In this document: piece by piece, positions 1-8,618 of the stretch
Layout: each line of letters begins with the position of its first letter
Numbering within the stretch: the first letter of the stretch is position 1
From: Candidatus Odinarchaeota archaeon
GTDB taxonomy: Archaea; Asgardarchaeota; Odinarchaeia; Odinarchaeales; Odinarchaeaceae
Length of the DNA: 8,618 nt
Direction of reading: 5' to 3'
Assembly: GCA_038826135.1 (NCBI GenBank)
Contig: JAWBON010000011.1
Span: forward strand, 18,736-27,353
Translations under genes and position numbers: made by a program
Notes under the pieces: generated by a model
What the model was told of the DNA's origin: nothing
Seen by the model: only the letters and a program-made list of their open reading frames with translations
The model's database searches: none

Positions 1-741
1 GGTCTTAAAGATAAGAATATTATAGTCCAGCGGGAAGTAACTTTAACTATTCAAAAAAACATCTGCCCAGACTGCTCTAAGATCAGCAGAGGATCCTATG
101 AAGCGATAATTCAAATAAGGGCTAAGAATAGACAGCTTGAAGAGGAGGAACGGGTGAAAATTCTCAATTACATATACAATTTCATACAGAAAAACAATAT
201 CACCAGCCCTGAACACGCAATAACTAAAATTAAAGAAAGCATCTCCGGCTTCGACTTATATTTTTCCTCTAACAACCTTGCTAGAAAAATATCTAACGAG
301 GTTGCTGAGGAATTCGGTTGCGCACATAAAGAGTCAAGTAAACTTGTAGGCAAAGATAAATCCGGTAAGACACTGTTTAAAGTCGTATATTCGCTCAGAC
401 TCCCCGCATTCAGGTTAGGTGACATTATAGAATGGAGTGGAAAATACTATATTTTAGAAAGCATAGGGGGTGGTAGTGCGCAGATAGTCGATATATCAGT
501 CAACCAGAAGAACTCTATACCTCTCTCTGAAACATGGAAAATAAGTTTAATTCTCCCGAGAGAGTCACTTAGCTGCTTCCTCATCCTAGCTGTTGAAGAT
601 AATGTCATCGACCTGATGGATACTAAAACATACGAGACGTTCTCAGTTAACAAGCCTACATGGTATGTTGAACCAGGGATGGAGTTAGCCGGATTCACTT
701 CAAGAAACGGCGAGATTATTATAATCCCACGAATAAAATAA
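1..741 (+). CDS. nmd3: NMD3-family large-subunit maturation factor, 5'-truncated
   Basis: Frame 1 is open from base 1 and reads ...KNICPDCSKISRGSYEAIIQIR, the NMD3 zinc knuckle plus YEAIxQxR, upstream of the tracked GTG at 154. It later shows KLVGKDKSGK..LRLPAFRLGD and an OB-like C-terminus. Confidence 0.92.
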   Translation, partial: GLKDKNIIVQREVTLTIQKNICPDCSKISRGSYEAIIQIRAKNRQLEEEERVKILNYIYNFIQKNNITSPEHAITKIKESISGFDLYFSSNNLARKISNEVAEEFGCAHKESSKLVGKDKSGKTLFKVVYSLRLPAFRLGDIIEWSGKYYILESIGGGSAQIVDISVNQKNSIPLSETWKISLILPRESLSCFLILAVEDNVIDLMDTKTYETFSVNKPTWYVEPGMELAGFTSRNGEIIIIPRIK

Positions 742-857: not shown

Positions 858-1184
858 TTGCCTAAAAAAGAGAAGGGTAAGAAGGGTTCAGGGGACTCTT
901 CAATACAGGAGGTTCAACGTGTAAGAGTTCCTGAAGAAGGAGAACTTCTCGGCGAGGTTGTGCAACTGTTAGGTCATGAAACACTCAGGGTAAGATGCGC
1001 TGACGGTAAGATTAGACTGTGCAGGATTCCTGGGCGTATGATAAAGAAAACATGGATTAAAGAGGGGGATATCGTTTTAATTGTACCCTGGGATTTCCAA
1101 TACGAGACTAGAGGGGATATAATCTGGCGTTACACTCAGGGTCAAGTTCAATGGCTGGAGAAAAAAGGGTATATGAATTTTTGA
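858..1184 (+). CDS. eif1a: Translation initiation factor aIF-1A
   Basis: S1/OB-fold motifs LLG..LRVRCADGKIRLCRIPGRM.K.TWI..GD.V and DIIWRY. TTG start preceded by GGTGG at 849-853. Confidence 0.97.
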   Translation: MPKKEKGKKGSGDSSIQEVQRVRVPEEGELLGEVVQLLGHETLRVRCADGKIRLCRIPGRMIKKTWIKEGDIVLIVPWDFQYETRGDIIWRYTQGQVQWLEKKGYMNF

Positions 1185-1193
1185 GGTGTTCCC

Positions 1194-1970
1194 ATGTCCG
1201 GGGACTCAGATAAGATTATTAGATTACTAGACTTTAAGTTAGATCAGTTCCGAGTTAAAAAAAAGGATGAAGAGGATTTTGAAACTCAGGAGGGTGTTTT
1301 AGATAAACCCACTTTAGAAACTCTTTACAATTTGGCTAAAAGGAGATTTCTCACAGAAATGTACGGGGTTATCTCCGCCGGTAAGGAGGCTAATATTTAC
1401 TGGGCTAAAAACATGGGTGTTGACTACGCTGTTAAAATATATCGCACTTCAACAGCTAATTTTAAAGCGATCCGAAACTATATCAGAGGAGATCCGAGAT
1501 TTAAAAAAATCAAGAGAGGGATTAGACCTCTAATATATACGTGGGCTTTAAAAGAGTTTAAAAATCTTCAACGCGCTATGTCTGTGGGTGTTAGAGTACC
1601 TCAACCTGTAATTGTTAAAAATAATGTGTTGATTATGGAATTTATAGGCGCGGATGGTAAACCAGCGCCTCTTCTGAAAGATGTCATTTTAGAATCACCG
1701 GGAAAAATCTATAATTTAATCTGCGATTTTATAAAGCTGCTTTATAGAAAAGCCAAGCTTGTCCACGCGGATCTAAGCGAGTTTAATATTATGTATAACG
1801 GTGAGCCGGTGCTCATAGATATGTCTCAGTCAGTGTTAACATGTCACCCGCTAGCGTTGGATTATTTGAAGCGGGATATAGCTGTGATATCAAAGTTTTT
1901 CAAATCAATAGGGGTACGCGTTATGGATGAAGAAGACTTTTTAGAGGAAGTTACAGGTGGAGTGGGATGA
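1194..1970 (+). CDS. rio1: RIO1-family atypical serine kinase/ATPase
   Basis: P-loop ISAGKEANIY, AVKIY, catalytic loop HADLSEFNIM and IDMSQSV. Shine-Dalgarno (SD) GAGGTG at 1183-1188 overlaps the aIF-1A stop. Confidence 0.96.
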   Translation: MSGDSDKIIRLLDFKLDQFRVKKKDEEDFETQEGVLDKPTLETLYNLAKRRFLTEMYGVISAGKEANIYWAKNMGVDYAVKIYRTSTANFKAIRNYIRGDPRFKKIKRGIRPLIYTWALKEFKNLQRAMSVGVRVPQPVIVKNNVLIMEFIGADGKPAPLLKDVILESPGKIYNLICDFIKLLYRKAKLVHADLSEFNIMYNGEPVLIDMSQSVLTCHPLALDYLKRDIAVISKFFKSIGVRVMDEEDFLEEVTGGVG

Positions 1971-2551
1971 AAAATATTGAGGTTATTAGAATACCGAAGG
2001 ATAGGGTGGGGGTTGTAATAGGGAAAAACGGAGAGACTAAGAGCCTTATAGAACAGCTTACTAACACTAAGCTTACAGTTGACAGTTCAAACAACACGGT
2101 TTCAATAGAATCCTCGGAGCAAACGGATCCGCTTGGAGTTTGGAAAACAAAGCAGATTGTAACAGCTATCGGTAGAGGTTTTAATCCGAAGAATGCTTTA
2201 AAACTGGTTGAAGACGATGTTTTCCTAGAAATAATAGATTTAAAAAATATTTTTCCCTCTGAGAAATCCCAGGTTAGAATTAAAGGTAGAATTATAGGTG
2301 AAAACGGTAAGACTAGACGGACAATAGAGGAGCTTTCAGAGACTAAGATCTCAGTTTACGGTGACACGGTTGGAATTCTCGGAGGACAGGAACAGTTAAA
2401 GATAGCTAGGAAAGCTGTTGAAATGCTTATAAAAGGCTCCTCACACTCTTCAGTATATAAATATTTGAGTAGGAAGAAACAGGAGCTTAAACAGCAAAGA
2501 TATGATTTATGGGAGCGCCCCCCTCTTCAGAGAGAGGAAGGCGGTGAATAA
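1967..2551 (+). CDS. dim2: KH-domain pre-rRNA processing protein Dim2/Pno1
   Basis: Two KH GxxG motifs (VIGKNGETK, IIGENGKTR) and AIGRGF. ATGA overlap with the rio1 stop. Canonical archaeal aIF1A-rio1-dim2 gene order. Confidence 0.94.
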   Translation: MKNIEVIRIPKDRVGVVIGKNGETKSLIEQLTNTKLTVDSSNNTVSIESSEQTDPLGVWKTKQIVTAIGRGFNPKNALKLVEDDVFLEIIDLKNIFPSEKSQVRIKGRIIGENGKTRRTIEELSETKISVYGDTVGILGGQEQLKIARKAVEMLIKGSSHSSVYKYLSRKKQELKQQRYDLWERPPLQREEGGE

Positions 2552-3234: not shown

Positions 3235-3399
3235 TATTCATCCCCACTATGCGTTAGTTAATTATTATTAGCTATTAACCTGTATTTTTAATAAATTTAT
3301 TAGTTTCGAAGCGTTATATATTTAACAACACGGGCTTTAACTAAAAATGTATGGATGCGAACAGATTACTATCACATTTAAATCATGAGGCGGTTTGTT

Positions 3400-3870
3400 T
3401 TGAAAATTATGGTTGTTCTAGGAGGGGGCGGTCACAGCTTCGAGATGATGAAGATTCTGGAAGGTTTGCATTTTAATAATATAATATACGTGTTAAACCA
3501 TGATGACCACTATACTGGTTTAAAGCTTAAGGGAACGCGTTTCTACAGATTGATAAGGCCTAGAAAACCATCAGAATACAGTGTTAAAGCTTTTTTCAGA
3601 TTTATATTTTCAATATTAAATTCACTGGCCCTTTTAATATGGACGAGGCCTAAACTGGTAATCACAAACGGCCCCTCTATAAGCGTGCCTTTAACTTTTA
3701 TCAGCTGGATACTAAGAATCCCGGTTATTTATATTGAGAGCGTGTGTAGAGTTTACAGGCTATCCCTTTCAGGCCGTATCATCTTGCCTTTAACCAGTCT
3801 TTTCATAGTTCAATGGCCGTATCTTAAAAAATATTCTAAGAAAATAATTTACGCTGGTAGAATCTTCTAG
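3400..3870 (+). CDS. alg14: Alg14-like acceptor-binding subunit of UDP-GlcNAc transferase
   Basis: VLGGGGHS.EM, ITNGPSISVP, YIESVCRV..LSLSGRI, FIVQWP and YAGRI match Alg14. TTG at 3400 is preferred because GAGGCGG lies at 3387-3393; ATG at 3385 or 3409 are alternatives. Confidence 0.9.
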   Translation: MKIMVVLGGGGHSFEMMKILEGLHFNNIIYVLNHDDHYTGLKLKGTRFYRLIRPRKPSEYSVKAFFRFIFSILNSLALLIWTRPKLVITNGPSISVPLTFISWILRIPVIYIESVCRVYRLSLSGRIILPLTSLFIVQWPYLKKYSKKIIYAGRIF

Positions 3871-3878
3871 GTGTTTTT

Positions 3879-4340
3879 ATGAAATTGTTTATAACAGTCG
3901 GTACTTCAAGTTTCGACCCTCTTTTCAGAAGGGTGGATGATATTCTAAAGGAGAGAACGGATTTTGAAGCTATAGGTCAGATAGGAACCGGGCTATATAA
4001 GCCGGTCCGGTTTACTAAAATTTTCAGGTTCACCAACAATATAGATAAGTATTACGCTTGGGCTGATCTAATAATATCGCATGGCGGTGCTGGTACAATA
4101 TATGATATACTACGCTTTAATAAGAAAGCGATAGTTATACCTAATAGGATGGTGGTTGAAGAGCACCAGGTTGAACTTGTTACCGTGTTACATAAGCTTG
4201 GCTATATAATGATGGGCGACCTTGATAAATTATCTGAACAGATAGCTGCCGCCTCAACATATGATTTTAAGCCGTATATTAGTAAACCCAACAAAATACA
4301 GTATATCCTGGATAAATATATTCGCGGAATTATAGGTTAA
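3879..4340 (+). CDS. alg13: Alg13-like donor-binding (GT28 C-terminal) subunit of UDP-GlcNAc transferase
   Basis: FITVGTSSFD, QIG, ADLIISHGGAGT and EHQVEL. It starts 8 nt after alg14, and SD AGGTG overlaps the alg14 stop. Confidence 0.9.
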   Translation: MKLFITVGTSSFDPLFRRVDDILKERTDFEAIGQIGTGLYKPVRFTKIFRFTNNIDKYYAWADLIISHGGAGTIYDILRFNKKAIVIPNRMVVEEHQVELVTVLHKLGYIMMGDLDKLSEQIAAASTYDFKPYISKPNKIQYILDKYIRGIIG

Positions 4341-5065
4341 TGCACCTTACATACAGGTGGTAATCGTCTTTTATGCATGTTCCGTTTAACTCTGTAAATT
4401 ATAGAGTTTACTGCATCCGCCGGTATTCCTTTATAGTCTCCTCTGACAACTTTATCTAAAACTTCATATTTGAATCCTATATCCTCTTCATCCGTTTGCC
4501 CCTCATATAACTCCGCTGAAGGCGGTTTCTCAATTATGCTTCTCGGAATCTTAATATGCTCTGCGATCCTTCTTACCTCGCATTTAACCAGATCACCTAA
4601 TGGTAATAGATCCACCCCTCCATCACCGTATTTAGTGAAATACCCGATTCTTAACTCCGTGTAATTTCCCGTTCCCACCACTAAGTAGGATAGACTGTTA
4701 GCTACATAGTAAAGGGTTGTCATTCTCAGCCTTGGTTTAATATTAGCTTCAGCGTTTAGATTAGTTAACTGGAAGGATCCCCTATATGTTTTAATTAATT
4801 GATCGTAAATCTCGGTTAAATCAATTATTTTATACTCTATATTGAATTGCTCAGCTAATTTAACAGCGCTATCTACACTGTCTGTTGGTGAATGGCATGG
4901 TAGAATAAGAGCTAAAGTAGGGTAACCGGTCCTCTTACACAAAACAGCTGTAACAGATGAATCTACCCCGCCTGATAAGCCTAATGTAAACCCCTTCATA
5001 CCAGAAGCGCTTATTCTTCGCTTAAGCCATGTTATAATTTTTATAATAGTTTCACTTATATTCAT
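4337..5065 (-). CDS. nadE: NH3-dependent NAD+ synthetase
   Basis: GLSGGVDS, NIKPRLRM, GTGN.TE..GYFTKYGDG and KPPSAEL..GQTDE; no glutaminase domain. ATG at 5065 has GTGG upstream; GTG at 5074 is an alternative. Confidence 0.96.
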   Translation of the reverse strand: MNISETIIKIITWLKRRISASGMKGFTLGLSGGVDSSVTAVLCKRTGYPTLALILPCHSPTDSVDSAVKLAEQFNIEYKIIDLTEIYDQLIKTYRGSFQLTNLNAEANIKPRLRMTTLYYVANSLSYLVVGTGNYTELRIGYFTKYGDGGVDLLPLGDLVKCEVRRIAEHIKIPRSIIEKPPSAELYEGQTDEEDIGFKYEVLDKVVRGDYKGIPADAVNSIIYRVKRNMHKRRLPPVCKVH

Positions 5066-5186
5066 TTCAACCACGCAGATAAACTGAGTTTAAAATATTT
5101 CATCACATGTTTAATAATTTACTTCATAGAATAATAAATATAGATGCTTCTTGATAAAAATTATAAATGTTTTTCGAGGCTGTTAT

Positions 5187-5693
5187 ATGAGATTATGGCT
5201 TCAAAACATATTAGCATGCCCTATATGTAAGACTCATCCTTTGAAGTTAATAGTTTTCGAATGGGATAAACCGGACAATACTTCGGAAACAGAGGCTCTT
5301 AAAAAGATGCTTATAAATGATGTTGAGAAAAAAATTATCAGCCCGAAGTCGATGATATCGCTTACCGTAATCGCTAGCGACGAGCTGTTAAACCGTAGAA
5401 TTGAAAAATTGAAGCACGCTTTTACAGGTTTAAACTTAGACTACGACCCTAATGTTTTAATGGCGAAAATCGAATCGGAAATGGAATTTTTCGTCGAGAC
5501 AATATACAGGCTTAACATTAAAAACGGCCTTCTCGTATGCGTAAACTGTAAGCGCTGGTTTCCTATAGGCAGTAGTATAGACGGTGTACCTGAGATGCTG
5601 CCGGATGATCTCCGTGATAAAATCAAAGATAAGAAGTTCATTAACTTATGGTTTAGTAAGTTACCGGAGGATTTGAAAAAAATAATAGTTTAG
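5187..5693 (+). CDS. trm112: Trm112-family methyltransferase activator, long form (168 aa)
   Basis: N-terminal M.LWL.NILACPIC and C-terminal I..GLLVCVNCKRWFPI...DGVPEMLP form the split zinc-binding domain. ATG at 5187 has GAGG upstream, so the tracked TTG at 5151 is unlikely. Confidence 0.85.
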   Translation: MRLWLQNILACPICKTHPLKLIVFEWDKPDNTSETEALKKMLINDVEKKIISPKSMISLTVIASDELLNRRIEKLKHAFTGLNLDYDPNVLMAKIESEMEFFVETIYRLNIKNGLLVCVNCKRWFPIGSSIDGVPEMLPDDLRDKIKDKKFINLWFSKLPEDLKKIIV

Positions 5694-5711
5694 CTGAATA
5701 GAGGTGGCGGG

Positions 5712-6377
5712 TTGAATTCGCAAATATGGTTTCTATTATTGAGAATAGCTGAGATGGGAAACGGTGAGCTTATATCAACAACTTCACTCAGCAGTAAAAT
5801 AGGCTTCAGCCAACAGAGTGCCTCCAGATATATTCGAATGCTTGAAAAGCAGGGTTTAATCACTAGGCGTATAACCAGCAGAGGGCAGTTTATAACGTTA
5901 ACAGGTGAAGGGTTAAACCGGCTTAGAGAGGTTTATAACAGGCTGAAAATAATTTTCGGGGAGGCTATACCTCTGTTTACAATTAAGGGTGTGGTTTTCA
6001 CAGGCTTAGGAGAAGGCGCCTATTATATGTCTAAAAAAGGGTATGTTGAACAATTCGAAAAACAGTTAGGGTTTAAACCCTTCCCAGGGACTTTGAATAT
6101 TAAACTATTGGATGAAGATGATATTAAAGCTAAGAGAGAGCTAGCCTCCCTTCAAGGTAAAGTAATCCATTCGTTCATAGATGATGATAGAACATTCGGT
6201 GACGTTAAATGTTTCCCAGCCTCTGTGAACGGCAAAGTCAGCGGTGCGGTTATACTGGTGAAAAGAACCCATTACGGTGATAACATATTAGAAGTAATCT
6301 CAGAGTATAATCTTAGAGAGAAGCTCTCTTTAAAAGACGGGGATATAGTTAGATTAACAGTAAACTTAGCGATCTAA
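5712..6377 (+). CDS. ribK: Winged-HTH fused CTP-dependent riboflavin kinase (RbkR-type)
   Basis: N-terminal HTH SQQSASRYIRMLEKQGLITR, then GLGEGAYY, LGF.PFPGTLN, RTHY and LKDGD. SD GAGGTG at 5701-5706 precedes the TTG start. Confidence 0.95.
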   Translation: MNSQIWFLLLRIAEMGNGELISTTSLSSKIGFSQQSASRYIRMLEKQGLITRRITSRGQFITLTGEGLNRLREVYNRLKIIFGEAIPLFTIKGVVFTGLGEGAYYMSKKGYVEQFEKQLGFKPFPGTLNIKLLDEDDIKAKRELASLQGKVIHSFIDDDRTFGDVKCFPASVNGKVSGAVILVKRTHYGDNILEVISEYNLREKLSLKDGDIVRLTVNLAI

Positions 6378-6835
6378 CATTTCCTATACTCTCTGATTAT
6401 CTTATCTATTATCTTACTTGTTCTGCAGAGATCATATTTGTCAAGATATTCCGGAATCCTGATTATTTTAGTTTTAAGCCCTAGGTTCTGGAGTTTATTT
6501 TTCAACTCCTCTTCTGAGAAATTCTGGTCTGGTCCTAGGATAATATAGTCTGGGTGAATGTCTTCAACGATCTTTAAAAGATCCGTGCCACTGTTGCCGA
6601 GAACCGCTTTTTTAACATATCTTATACCTTCAACCACTGCTAATCTCTGATCCTCTGGTATTATTGGAGGATGCCCTTTAATTCTCTTAACATTTTCATC
6701 TCTCGCCACTACGACTATAAGGTCGCCGAACCTACTAGCTTTCCGCATTAAATGTATGTGACCTCCGTGTATGATGTCGAATGTTCCACCTATTAAAACA
6801 GTTTTTCTCCGAGCTCTTCCTTGGTTGTTAACCAT
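6374..6835 (-). CDS. ribL: Archaeal FAD synthase (cytidylyltransferase fold)
   Basis: GGTFDIIHGGH (HxGH), VVVARD, R...V..IRYV..A.LG, LGPDQ and TSKII. SD GGAGGA on the minus strand at 6841-6846. Adjacency to riboflavin kinase favours RibL over TagD. Confidence 0.82.
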   Translation of the reverse strand: MVNNQGRARRKTVLIGGTFDIIHGGHIHLMRKASRFGDLIVVVARDENVKRIKGHPPIIPEDQRLAVVEGIRYVKKAVLGNSGTDLLKIVEDIHPDYIILGPDQNFSEEELKNKLQNLGLKTKIIRIPEYLDKYDLCRTSKIIDKIIREYRKC

Positions 6836-6883
6836 ATAAGTCCTCCATATTAGGTTCTATTATGCGATAGTTAAATCTAAATA

Positions 6884-6891
6884 TTTTTAAA
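6884..6891 (+). promoter_or_regulatory. Putative TATA box for the tRNA-Lys (and possibly alg7) transcript
   Basis: TTTTTAAA spans about -32 to -25 relative to tRNA G1 at 6916, consistent with archaeal TATA spacing. The AT-rich context lowers specificity. Confidence 0.55.
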
Positions 6892-6946
6892 TCATGAGAT
6901 TAAATCCATATTGATGGGCCCGTAGCTCAGGCAGGTAGAGCGTCAG

Positions 6947-6970
6947 ACTATTCTAATAGAATAGGGTGAA
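6947..6970 (+). other. tRNA intron 1, 24 nt, position 30/31, strict BHB
   Basis: Outer helix AGAG(6937-40)/CTCT(6972-75), central helix CGTC/GGTG, bulges AGA (6945-47) and AAG (6969-71), intron hairpin CTATTCT-AAT-AGAATAG. Cutting after the second nucleotide of each bulge gives these boundaries. Confidence 0.85.
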
Positions 6971-6986
6971 GCTCTTAACTTGATGG

Positions 6987-7017
6987 ACTGGGGTATTGAT
7001 GAATACTCTAGGTCGAA
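6987..7017 (+). other. tRNA intron 2, 31 nt, position 46/47, relaxed BHB
   Basis: Central helix TGAT(6981-84)/GTCG(7012-15), bulge GGA (6985-87), 10-bp hairpin CTGGGGTATT-GATG-AATACTCTAG. The 3' site AA|T lacks a clear outer helix. Excision restores the variable loop TGGTC. Confidence 0.85.
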
Positions 7018-7074
7018 TCAAGGGTTCGATTCCCTTCGGGCCCGCCAATTAATTACGATAGGAGCCGGTCTTAT

Positions 7075-8061
7075 TTGGTTTTATCATCCTCCTGGTGGGT
7101 TTATCTATTAGTTTTTTCAATGTCTGCTTTCATATCTTTTATTGCAATACCCCTAGCAGCCAGCAAATTCAAGAAGGCTGGTTTGAAGGGTGTTAATCTT
7201 CACTCAAAATCTAGGGAGGAGAACGCTGAAAGTTTAGGTTTAGTTATTGGAATGATCACCGTTATTGTTATTATATTAATGTCTTTTTTATTGAAATCGT
7301 ATATTGACTTAATATATACGGCTATTATGTCCGCTGTGCTAGCTCTAATACTAGGGTTTGTCGATGATGTTTTAAATGTTAGATGGCGTTATAAGCTTCT
7401 AATACCGTTATTCGCTTCCATACCGTTAATTCTTAATTACGCAGGCTCCACCTCTGTTGAAGTTCCTTTTATAGGAGTTATCGAACTCGGATTAATATAT
7501 CCTTTACTGTTAATCCCGTTAATCACGATTTATATGGCTAACTCTATTAACATATACGCTGGTATAAACCTGTTAGAGGCTGGTCAGGTTATTGTTTTAA
7601 CTAGTGTTATAATTATTTTAGGTGCGGTAACCGGTAACGAGCTAGCCTTATATATGGCTGTGCCGTTTCTGGGTGGATGCTTAGCCTTAGCTTGGTTTAA
7701 TAAATATCCTGCGAGAGTGTTTGTTGGCAACTCCTTTACATATTTTGCCGGTATGTTTCTTATTTCCGTGGTTGTTTTAGCAAATATGGAGAAAATATTT
7801 ATATTATGCACGTTTCCTCAGCTGATTAATTTTCTTTACTCGCTTAAAGATTTTATTAAAAAAACACCTAGGCATAGAGTTCCAGTCTACAACGTGACCA
7901 CAGGGCTTTTAGAGGATTCAGGGAATCACACTCTTCTCAACCTGGTTCTCAAATTGAAAGGCCCGATGACTGAGAGAAGGCTTTCAGGAATACTGATTTT
8001 ACTGCAACTGTTTAACGCGGTGATTGTTTTAGGAGTCTGGTTGTTTTTAATATTGCTATGA
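7075..8061 (+). CDS. alg7: UDP-GlcNAc:polyprenyl-phosphate GlcNAc-1-P transferase, DPAGT1/Alg7 type (AglH family)
   Basis: Multi-pass membrane protein with LGFVDDVLNVRWRYKL, NSINIYAGIN.LEAGQ, YPARVFVG..F.YFAGM, PQLINFLYSL, PRHRVP and NHTLLNL..GP..ER.L. TTG start with GGAG at 7061-7064. Confidence 0.93.
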   Translation: MVLSSSWWVYLLVFSMSAFISFIAIPLAASKFKKAGLKGVNLHSKSREENAESLGLVIGMITVIVIILMSFLLKSYIDLIYTAIMSAVLALILGFVDDVLNVRWRYKLLIPLFASIPLILNYAGSTSVEVPFIGVIELGLIYPLLLIPLITIYMANSINIYAGINLLEAGQVIVLTSVIIILGAVTGNELALYMAVPFLGGCLALAWFNKYPARVFVGNSFTYFAGMFLISVVVLANMEKIFILCTFPQLINFLYSLKDFIKKTPRHRVPVYNVTTGLLEDSGNHTLLNLVLKLKGPMTERRLSGILILLQLFNAVIVLGVWLFLILL

Positions 8062-8070
8062 GAGTGCCCT

Positions 8071-8590
8071 CTATGATTGGAGTATTCGAATCTCCCCACG
8101 TCCTTCCTCGATTACATCCCCTTTAAACACTTTAAAAGCCGTTTCAACCCCGTCTATTACACTGTGAACCAGCCCGGCGTCTATAAACCCTAACCCTATC
8201 TCTGCCGAGCCGAGAATGTTTATAACTCCCCCCCTCATCCTAGACCCTGTTTCAGCTCCGCAGGAGCCTTTCACTGTTATTTGACCGCCAAGCATGTAAT
8301 ATCCTAGAAAACATCCGCAGCAACCTTTCACAGTTATTTCCCCGCCAGTTAACCGCATACCGGTAAAATTCTTAGCATCCCCGTCAACTTTTATAACCCC
8401 CCCTTTCATGCCTTCAGAGGATCCTATGTAATTTGCACCTAGAAAACTCTCCGCGTTCTCTAACACGTGTATGAGGCCGCCGCTCATTTCAGCTCCACAC
8501 CAGTCATCCACACACCCGTTAACTGTTATTTCCCCCCCGCTCATATAGGCGCCTAAATGCAGCCCCGCATCCCCGCTAACGATCATCCTG
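8071..8590 (-). CDS. fwdC: Formylmethanofuran dehydrogenase subunit C-like GXGXG beta-helix protein, 5'-truncated
   Basis: Repeated G..M.GG.I.V.G units (GAYMSGGEITVNG, GAEMSGGLIHV, GMKGGVIKVDG, GSRMRGGVINI). The frame stays open to the window end, so ATG at 8586 is probably internal. Confidence 0.8.
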
Positions 8591-8618
8591 CCCCCCCCCC
8601 TTTTTTCCCCCCCCCCCC
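8591..8618. repeat. Terminal homopolymer tract C10-T6-C12, probable sequencing or assembly artefact
   Basis: Abrupt switch from coding sequence to pure homopolymer at the very end of an AT-rich window; it reads as poly-G on the minus strand. Confidence 0.75.

Follow-up and report, generated by a model that had tools for sequence, protein, structure and literature searches.

The origin of N-glycosylation in the endoplasmic reticulum (ER) is debated: proposals invoke an initiation module from archaea and mannosyltransferases from bacteria, and the part played by the Asgard archaea is unclear. Described systems close to the locus presented here are the eukaryotic ALG7/human DPAGT1 (GPT, EC 2.7.8.15; PDB 5LEV, 6BW5, 9ZNN), the bacterial PssD/PssE pairs (= Cps14F/Cps14G = EpsE/EpsF; NF041549/NF041548), and Agl24 of Sulfolobus acidocaldarius (GT115), a beta-1,4-N-acetylglucosamine (GlcNAc) transferase with a chitobiose-pyrophosphate (PP)-lipid as its product. 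Here we compare these with an 8.6 kb stretch of DNA (hereafter the window; contig positions 18736-27353), which carries genes for homologs of Alg14, Alg13 and Alg7 and comes from a genome of 1.26 Mb (1,264,822 bp in 105 contigs, 93% complete). The proteins encoded in the window share 66-76% identity with their counterparts in Candidatus Odinarchaeum yellowstonii LCB_4 and in further metagenome-assembled genomes (MAGs) of Odinarchaeia, and the host is therefore a member of the Odinarchaeia (Asgard), in agreement with the archaeal host named in a first-pass annotation of this DNA; its further statement that all three homologs lie within 4.7 kb is confirmed by the Pfam matches (Table 1). Also close are the LCB_4 genes OdinLCB4_002300/002295 and the Odinarchaeota Alg14 and Alg13 homologs of Meyer et al. 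2022 (eLife 11:e67448, PMC8993221), which are orthologs of the window genes: Alg14, Alg13 and Alg7 are 74%, 66% and 76% identical to their LCB_4 counterparts and the gene order is the same, although the window comes from another species of the genus. The Odinarchaeial Alg14 and Alg13 and their eukaryotic link are thus already known from that paper, which holds no discussion of Asgard Alg7 phylogeny or gene neighbourhood, and the Alg7 part of our analysis is a useful extension of the published work.

We give a probability of about 0.72 to the reading that the three genes are native to this member of the Odinarchaeia and serve the first two cytoplasmic steps by which it assembles a lipid-linked N-glycan. 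In the first step Alg7 (AglH), a DPAGT1-type membrane protein with 10 helices, would move GlcNAc-1-phosphate from UDP-GlcNAc to dolichyl phosphate, with its PRHR loop acting as pyrophosphate pincer and N-acetyl 'gate' as in human DPAGT1; from homology and fold, motifs and tree we infer dolichyl-PP-GlcNAc (Dol-PP-GlcNAc) as its product. In the second step Alg14, with no transmembrane anchor, would bring the GGGGH acceptor/phosphate loop and a hydrophobic surface helix, and Alg13 the UDP-sugar-binding half, the two forming one membrane-side GT-B enzyme which adds a second sugar. Given the signatures in Alg14, published work and a first step specific for GlcNAc, the added sugar is most likely a beta-1,4-linked GlcNAc and the product Dol-PP-GlcNAc2 (chitobiose), albeit with less certainty than for the first step, since bacterial members of the family use other donors. 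Glycosyltransferases encoded elsewhere in the host genome, where seven candidates of the GT1 family were found, would extend the chain, and the single AglB/STT3 would transfer the glycan to Asn. Alg7, Alg14 and Alg13 are each the sole member of their family in this genome, with counts of one for PF00953, PF08660 and AglB/STT3. With regard to transcription, Alg14 and Alg13 would form one unit, and Alg7, located 2.7 kb further downstream and preceded by a tRNA-Lys gene, would form another. The locus provides a compact, thermophile-derived Alg7/Alg14/Alg13 set, nearer to the enzymes of eukaryotes than are any that have been characterised from archaea.

Alg7 is the sister of the eukaryotic enzyme

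Human DPAGT1 matches the window Alg7 at E 1e-49 (32-33% identity), versus 1e-8 for MraY. When 5.8 billion proteins were searched, the Odinarchaeial orthologs ranked first (54-78% identity), followed by about 100 matches (155-211 bits, 35-42% identity) in which every named protein is a eukaryotic ALG7/DPAGT1, and the unnamed ones that were tested branch inside the eukaryotic Alg7 clade. The best match outside the Odinarchaeia reached 130 bits and no more than 34% identity in a survey of 200 Asgard genomes from 27 families, and the best match in 150 Thermoproteota genomes was 129 bits; within the Asgard survey, the Odin-type Alg7 was confined to two Odinarchaeia families. Phylogenetic analysis with IQ-TREE (LG+C20+F+G4 with posterior mean site frequencies (PMSF), 82 sequences, 365 columns, rooted on bacterial MraY/WecA-type proteins) united Odinarchaeia and eukaryotes with 100/100 support; the stem of this clade measures 1.6 substitutions per site, and both the Odinarchaeia (100/99) and the eukaryotes (99/96) are monophyletic. 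The next sister is a Thorarchaeia-type Asgard group (91/83), followed by the Thermoproteota, while the bacterial outgroup is set apart at 99/98, so that Alg7 does not branch with WecA. The strongest result of this study is that the Odinarchaeial Alg7 is the sister group of eukaryotic ALG7/DPAGT1 and its closest prokaryotic relative in every set sampled, as was expected from the eukaryotic type assigned to it earlier, and this relationship fits an archaeal origin of the first N-glycan step. Database records already give the LCB_4 ortholog a functional name; neither the sister relationship to eukaryotic ALG7 nor the PRHR/CL9 region of the Odinarchaeial protein was found in the literature searched, which, given its incomplete coverage, is weak evidence of novelty.

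The same picture is obtained from the motifs and the predicted fold. The window protein contains DD97-98, W104-K107, N156/N159, N219 and P265-R-H-R268, and the last of these, read in the first-pass annotation as PRHRxP and present as PRHRVP, lines up with P300-R303 of DPAGT1. Among the groups sampled, WRxK, N[ST]INIxAGxNxLExGQ, VFVG[DN] and PRHRxP are found only in Odinarchaeia and eukaryotes, and at the PRHR stretch other Asgard archaea, Thermoproteota and bacteria have a gap or unrelated residues. R301 of human DPAGT1 is one half of the pyrophosphate pincer, while H302 and R303 function in GlcNAc recognition and N-acetyl gating (Dong et al. 2018, PMC6218659). An AlphaFold2 model of the window protein (mean predicted local distance difference test score (pLDDT) 93.6) superimposes on human DPAGT1 with a template modelling (TM) score of 0.85-0.88, compared to 0.56-0.74 for MraY, and the two share one fold as well as DDxxN, WRxK, NxxNxxAGxNxLExGQ, PRHR and the strand-loop which follows it (the CL9 region). 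There are also differences: the Odinarchaeial protein falls short of the eukaryotic one by about 80 residues, having no N-terminal extension and reduced loops; it contains GINLLE where eukaryotes have GINGLE, and it belongs to a thermophilic archaeon without an ER. Of the Mg2+ ligands of DPAGT1, Asn185 has its equivalent in N159, whereas the position of Asp252 is taken by Asn219 (codon 7729-7731), an Asn in 12/12 Odinarchaeial sequences (VFVGN versus VFVGD). This natural substitution would be compatible with activity, as the D252N mutant of human DPAGT1 is 5-fold more active (Dong et al. 2018, PMC6218659).

Eukaryotic contamination was ruled out as a source of this gene, as it lies among archaeal genes and in the same neighbourhood in the closed LCB_4 chromosome. 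The direction of descent is a separate matter: it is not fixed by these data, and the earlier description of the locus as a prokaryotic precursor goes beyond them, with the eukaryote-type Alg7 found only in the Odinarchaeia among the 200 Asgard genomes. The same function could have a different history, in which the eukaryote-like Alg7 (and Alg14) was acquired by ancient horizontal transfer from the eukaryotic stem, or was exchanged between lineages. The distribution described above leans that way, with 25 of the 27 Asgard families having nothing closer than 34% identity, as do the long stem shared by the two groups and the patchy occurrence of Alg14 (47/201 Asgard genomes, and none detected in one of the Odinarchaeia families), and the same caveat was raised by Meyer et al. 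2022 (PMC8993221). We nevertheless consider such a transfer rather unlikely, since the Odinarchaeial sequences fall outside the monophyletic eukaryotic Alg7 clade, the next sister is again an Asgard group, the Odinarchaeial proteins lack the eukaryotic additions (the N-terminal anchor of Alg14, and the long N-terminus and loops of Alg7), and the genes reside in a conserved archaeal neighbourhood on a closed chromosome in LCB_4. Whichever history applies, the Odin-only eukaryote-type Alg7 offers a concrete test case for vertical descent versus transfer during eukaryogenesis.

The Alg14-Alg13 pair and the proposed second step

The window Alg14 is 73-75% identical to those of other Odinarchaeia, and an alternative start codon (TTG at 3400), which is the start taken in the first-pass annotation, agrees with the N-termini of its homologs. 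The loop GGGGH17 (G13-G16, H17) and E118 are both present and are invariant or nearly so in the alignments; the His equivalent to H17 is essential in Agl24 and MurG (PMC8993221). The first-pass annotation had singled out NGP and ESVCRV as eukaryote-like, and the sequence comparison bears this out: the window protein has TNGPS and ESVCRV, and the combination of NGP with ES[IVL]CRV is present in 8/8 Odinarchaeial and 3/3 eukaryote-type sequences (xNGPx, ES[IVL]CRV) and in none of 82 sequences from other groups, with no carriers among 45 bacterial and 27 other Asgard sequences, nor among those of TACK and DPANN. At the same positions the Thorarchaeia have SCGTG and ESMSRV, the TACK archaea SAGPG and E[DS]WSRV, the Chloroflexota S[ST]GP[AS] and ETGSRV, and the main bacterial group STGAG and ES[LMV][AT]RI. 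In an Alg14 tree of 93 sequences, with MurG N-domains as the root, the main group of bacterial PssD-like proteins forms a clade of its own (97/84) and the window protein lies outside it, in a group (86/80) with eukaryotes, Thorarchaeia, a TACK/Micrarchaeota set and a Chloroflexota clade, which forms a polytomy inside. A clade of Odinarchaeia and eukaryotes was not rejected by the approximately unbiased (AU) test (delta lnL 1.6, p-AU 0.44), and in Meyer et al. 2022 (PMC8993221) the Odinarchaeota are the strongly supported sister of eukaryotic Alg14. A PDB sequence search with the window Alg14 gave no match at E 0.01, and with no Alg14 structure found in the PDB the Odinarchaeial proteins are convenient targets for structural and enzymatic work on N-glycan initiation.

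A separate observation from the same tree concerns eleven Chloroflexota Alg14-like genes (L014-L028 and L058 loci), which are located on its archaeal/eukaryotic side, outside the main bacterial clade; their placement suggests interdomain transfer.

Alg13 starts 8 nt after the end of Alg14 on the same strand, and the two are probably co-transcribed as one unit. The yeast Alg13 structures 2KS6/2JZC match the window protein at E 1e-7, and a eukaryotic Alg13 clade could be picked out among database representatives (the named ones being Orbilia, Cyclidium, an MMETSP transcript and a chrysophyte), but the eukaryotic type initially attributed to the window Alg13 was not recovered from trees made with FastTree (227 rows) and IQ-TREE (95 rows), as will be discussed below. 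No motif exclusive to Odinarchaeial and eukaryotic Alg13 was found in the alignments, and Meyer et al. 2022 (PMC8993221) placed the Thorarchaeota, not the Odinarchaeota, beside eukaryotic Alg13. Similarly, the separation of Alg13 and Alg14, noted earlier to be as in eukaryotes, is real in that there are two open reading frames (ORFs), but it is not diagnostic: of about 60 loci from bacteria and archaea, nearly all (about 55) have an Alg13-like ORF directly 3' of an Alg14-like ORF, and therefore a split, adjacent Alg14-Alg13 pair is the ordinary prokaryotic state and not a eukaryote-like trait. The contrast with the fused Agl24 does stand, as an Agl24-type enzyme is ruled out by the two ORFs being in different frames. 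Agl24 catalyses the reaction predicted for the Odinarchaeial pair and resembles it in its His loop (GGxGGH) and in having no transmembrane domain, but its two halves are fused in one chain and its clade is more distant, and the crenarchaeal AglH which partners it has no PRHR, unlike the Odinarchaeial Alg7. A further match of the Alg13 query was with a 5,404-aa database protein (P0160), 10 separate stretches of which match the nucleotide-binding segment (query residues 69-109).

Instead of acting in N-glycan assembly, the pair could be of the PssD/PssE (EpsE/EpsF, Cps14F/G) type, transferring a sugar other than GlcNAc or serving a surface polysaccharide pathway outside AglB, in which case the proximity of Alg7 would be incidental. 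It is at this point that the observations which weigh against our assignment are best considered together. The window Alg13 scores 136.8 bits on the NCBIfam PssE model (cut-off 120), and the backbone of its IQ-TREE phylogeny has bootstrap values of 11-28, with that of the FastTree phylogeny likewise without order; these trees give Alg13 no link to the eukaryotes and no evidence against one. The Alg14 tree itself does not recover Odinarchaeia with eukaryotes, the eukaryote-type Alg14 sample consists of three sequences of which one is named (Homarus), and the Alg7 tree was made without Euryarchaeota and without DPANN, a partial Micrarchaeota sequence having been left out of it. Bacterial family members of the PssD/PssE type use Gal or GlcA donors, and the second sugar can therefore not be read from family membership. 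The N-terminal transmembrane anchor of eukaryotic Alg14 is its ER tether and its contact with Alg7, and this anchor is missing from the window protein, the Odinarchaeial proteins beginning at the first beta-strand and the eukaryotic sequences having 40-100 extra N-terminal residues. Alg14 (PF08660) was not detected in any of three genomes (78-91% complete) of the second Odinarchaeia family, and in the window four unrelated genes in mixed orientation, together with a tRNA gene, part Alg14-Alg13 from Alg7. To these can be added the window Alg14 score on the NCBIfam PssD model (109.4 bits, cut-off 110), and the location of a related Asgard cluster (G025, described below) beside genes for a di-N-acetylated sugar acid.

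Several of these points lose force on closer comparison. Since a genuine eukaryotic ALG14 (Homarus) scores 110.2 bits on the PssD model, where the window protein has 109.4, the label does not discriminate, and after calibration with eukaryotic and Thorarchaeial proteins both NCBIfam labels were rejected for this purpose. The bacterial pairs share the adjacent two-gene layout and the overall fold with the Odinarchaeial pair, but differ in their Alg14 signatures, of which the window protein shares two with eukaryotes only, and, for the main bacterial group, in forming the separate clade described above, so that Alg14 does not branch with that group. Bacterial genes of this type are also located in clusters for exopolysaccharides (EPS) or capsular polysaccharides, whereas the neighbours in the window are housekeeping genes, with no Wzx/Wzy, priming Glc/Gal-1-phosphate transferase or other EPS genes within it. 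With only one PNPT and one AglB, a genome of 1.26 Mb would have few other acceptor pathways, and the proximity to Alg7 recurs in independent arrangements. We thus regard a PssD/PssE-type role as improbable and retain the first two steps of N-glycan assembly as the likely function of the three genes. Prediction of a complex of Alg7 with Alg14 and Alg13, from alignments for the three chains, gave no answer (score 0.00) and counts neither way.

Linkage of the three genes

The start of Alg7 is 2,734 nt past the end of Alg13, and in between are NadE (-), the Trm112-like gene (+), riboflavin kinase (+), the RibL-like gene (-) and the tRNA gene (+); with four unrelated genes and a tRNA in this interval, the three genes do not form one operon. 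LCB_4 and two further Odinarchaeial genomes have the same gene order, but as close Odinarchaeial genomes are collinear over the entire 14 kb from NMD3 to FwdB, this conservation is not specific to the Alg genes. A more distant Odinarchaeia MAG (L008), with an Alg7 60% identical to that of the window, has the order Alg7(+), hypothetical(-), cytidylyltransferase(+), metallophosphoesterase(-), with the start of Alg14 at the contig end, and here Alg7 is still 2.3 kb from the start of Alg14 despite the rearrangement. In the second Odinarchaeia family (G035, G044, G053; L184), the Odin-type Alg7 (54-56% identity) is found in a RibK-RibL-Alg7-FwdC context.

The linkage also extends beyond the Odinarchaeia: in three Thermoproteota genomes (L142, L144, L146) and one other Asgard family (G025, L185), an AglH-type gene divergently adjoins Alg14-Alg13, with spacers of about 95-130 bp. 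These clusters link the same three families with the genes directly adjacent, but they are not of the eukaryote-like type, as their AglH has no PRHR and their Alg14 no NGP/ESxCRV. The G025 cluster (C56, 670-11121) is flanked by a DegT aminotransferase, a UDP-sugar dehydrogenase, a GFO/IDH/MocA oxidoreductase and a PAP2 phosphatase, and its aminotransferase, dehydrogenase and oxidoreductase together recall the Wbp genes which produce a di-N-acetyl sugar acid. The near-clustering had been put forward as the less familiar part of the locus; the proximity is real, but it is loose, and tighter clusters of the same genes are found in the Thermoproteota and the other Asgard family. We read the Odinarchaeial arrangement as a loosened form of a linkage which is widespread in archaea.

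It is a tenable alternative, though in our view still the less probable one, that the 4.7-kb 'cluster' has no functional meaning and reflects the usual conservation of gene order in a genome that is small and compact. The collinearity of the whole NMD3-FwdB block, the mixed orientation with a tRNA ahead of Alg7, and the RibK-RibL-Alg7-FwdC arrangement without Alg14/13 in one Odinarchaeia family can all be viewed in that light. They have to be set against the retained distance of 2.3 kb in the rearranged L008, the directly adjacent AglH/Alg14/Alg13 clusters in Thermoproteota and another Asgard family, and the chance of a given gene lying within 2.7 kb of another, which is about 0.4% (2 x 2734 / 1,264,822) and was calculated post hoc.

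A broader proposal can be made tentatively, and we hold it to be doubtful at present: that the Odinarchaeia are the only known prokaryotes with a PRHR/CL9 Alg7, a gate which has been described as eukaryote-only, that they have it close by the only prokaryotic Alg14 with NGP/ESxCRV, and that the ER pathway may owe its first two enzymes, as a linked module, to one Odin-related lineage. If true, either this module was passed on by descent, with later loss or replacement in the other Asgard archaea, or the eukaryotic stem and the Odin-related lineage exchanged it as a whole, and both options are awkward for a Heimdall/Hodarchaeales-only ancestry of eukaryotic genes.

Two neighbours of the Alg genes merit description in their own right. 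The gene for a 226-aa metallophosphoesterase divergently adjoins Alg14 in both the standard and the rearranged order (in L008 at 12467-13147), and a role as pyrophosphatase or nucleotide-sugar hydrolase is speculation only. The tRNA-Lys(CUU) gene, which ends about 28 nt upstream of Alg7, has introns in the anticodon stem and the variable region and encodes its own CCA; the anticodon and intron positions were read from an alignment with the L008 copy, which has the second intron only. A tRNA upstream of Alg7 is also present in L004, L005 and L008. ARAGORN did not detect this intron-containing tRNA in the window, whereas Rfam does.

Other features of the window

All features of the window are listed in Table 1. 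The genes at its left end form a run of eukaryote-style ribosome-biogenesis factors (NMD3-like, aIF1A, RIO1 kinase and KH protein, 1-2551), which is kept in other Odinarchaeial genomes (L004, L005). With regard to the Trm112-like protein, the 40-position Pfam zinc-ribbon model spans residues 19-139, and the zinc ribbon is seemingly interrupted by an insertion of about 100 residues.

Table 1. Genes and other features of the 8.6-kb window, with positions counted from its first nucleotide
Feature	Position	Strand	Match or remark
NMD3-like	1-741	+	truncated by window edge
aIF1A	858-1184	+	
RIO1 kinase	1194-1970	+	
KH protein (PNO1/KRR1-like)	1967-2551	+	
Metallophosphoesterase, 226 aa	2554-3234	-	
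Alg14-like, 161 aa; N-terminal (acceptor and membrane-side) half of split GT-B glycosyltransferase	3385-3870	+	PF08660, 112.7 bits
Alg13-like, 153 aa; C-terminal (UDP-sugar-binding) half of split glycosyltransferase	3879-4340	+	PF04101 (GT28 C-terminal domain), 78.1 bits
NadE	4337-5074	-	Pfam
Trm112-like, 180 aa	5151-5693	+	Pfam
Helix-turn-helix and CTP-dependent riboflavin kinase	5712-6377	+	Pfam
RibL-like cytidylyltransferase	6374-6835	-	Pfam
tRNA-Lys(CUU), two non-canonical introns	6916-7047	+	Rfam RF00005, 43.1 bits
Alg7/DPAGT1-type polyprenyl-phosphate GlcNAc-1-phosphate transferase (AglH), 328 aa, TTG start	7075-8061	+	PF00953, 106 bits
FwdC-like	8071-8616	-

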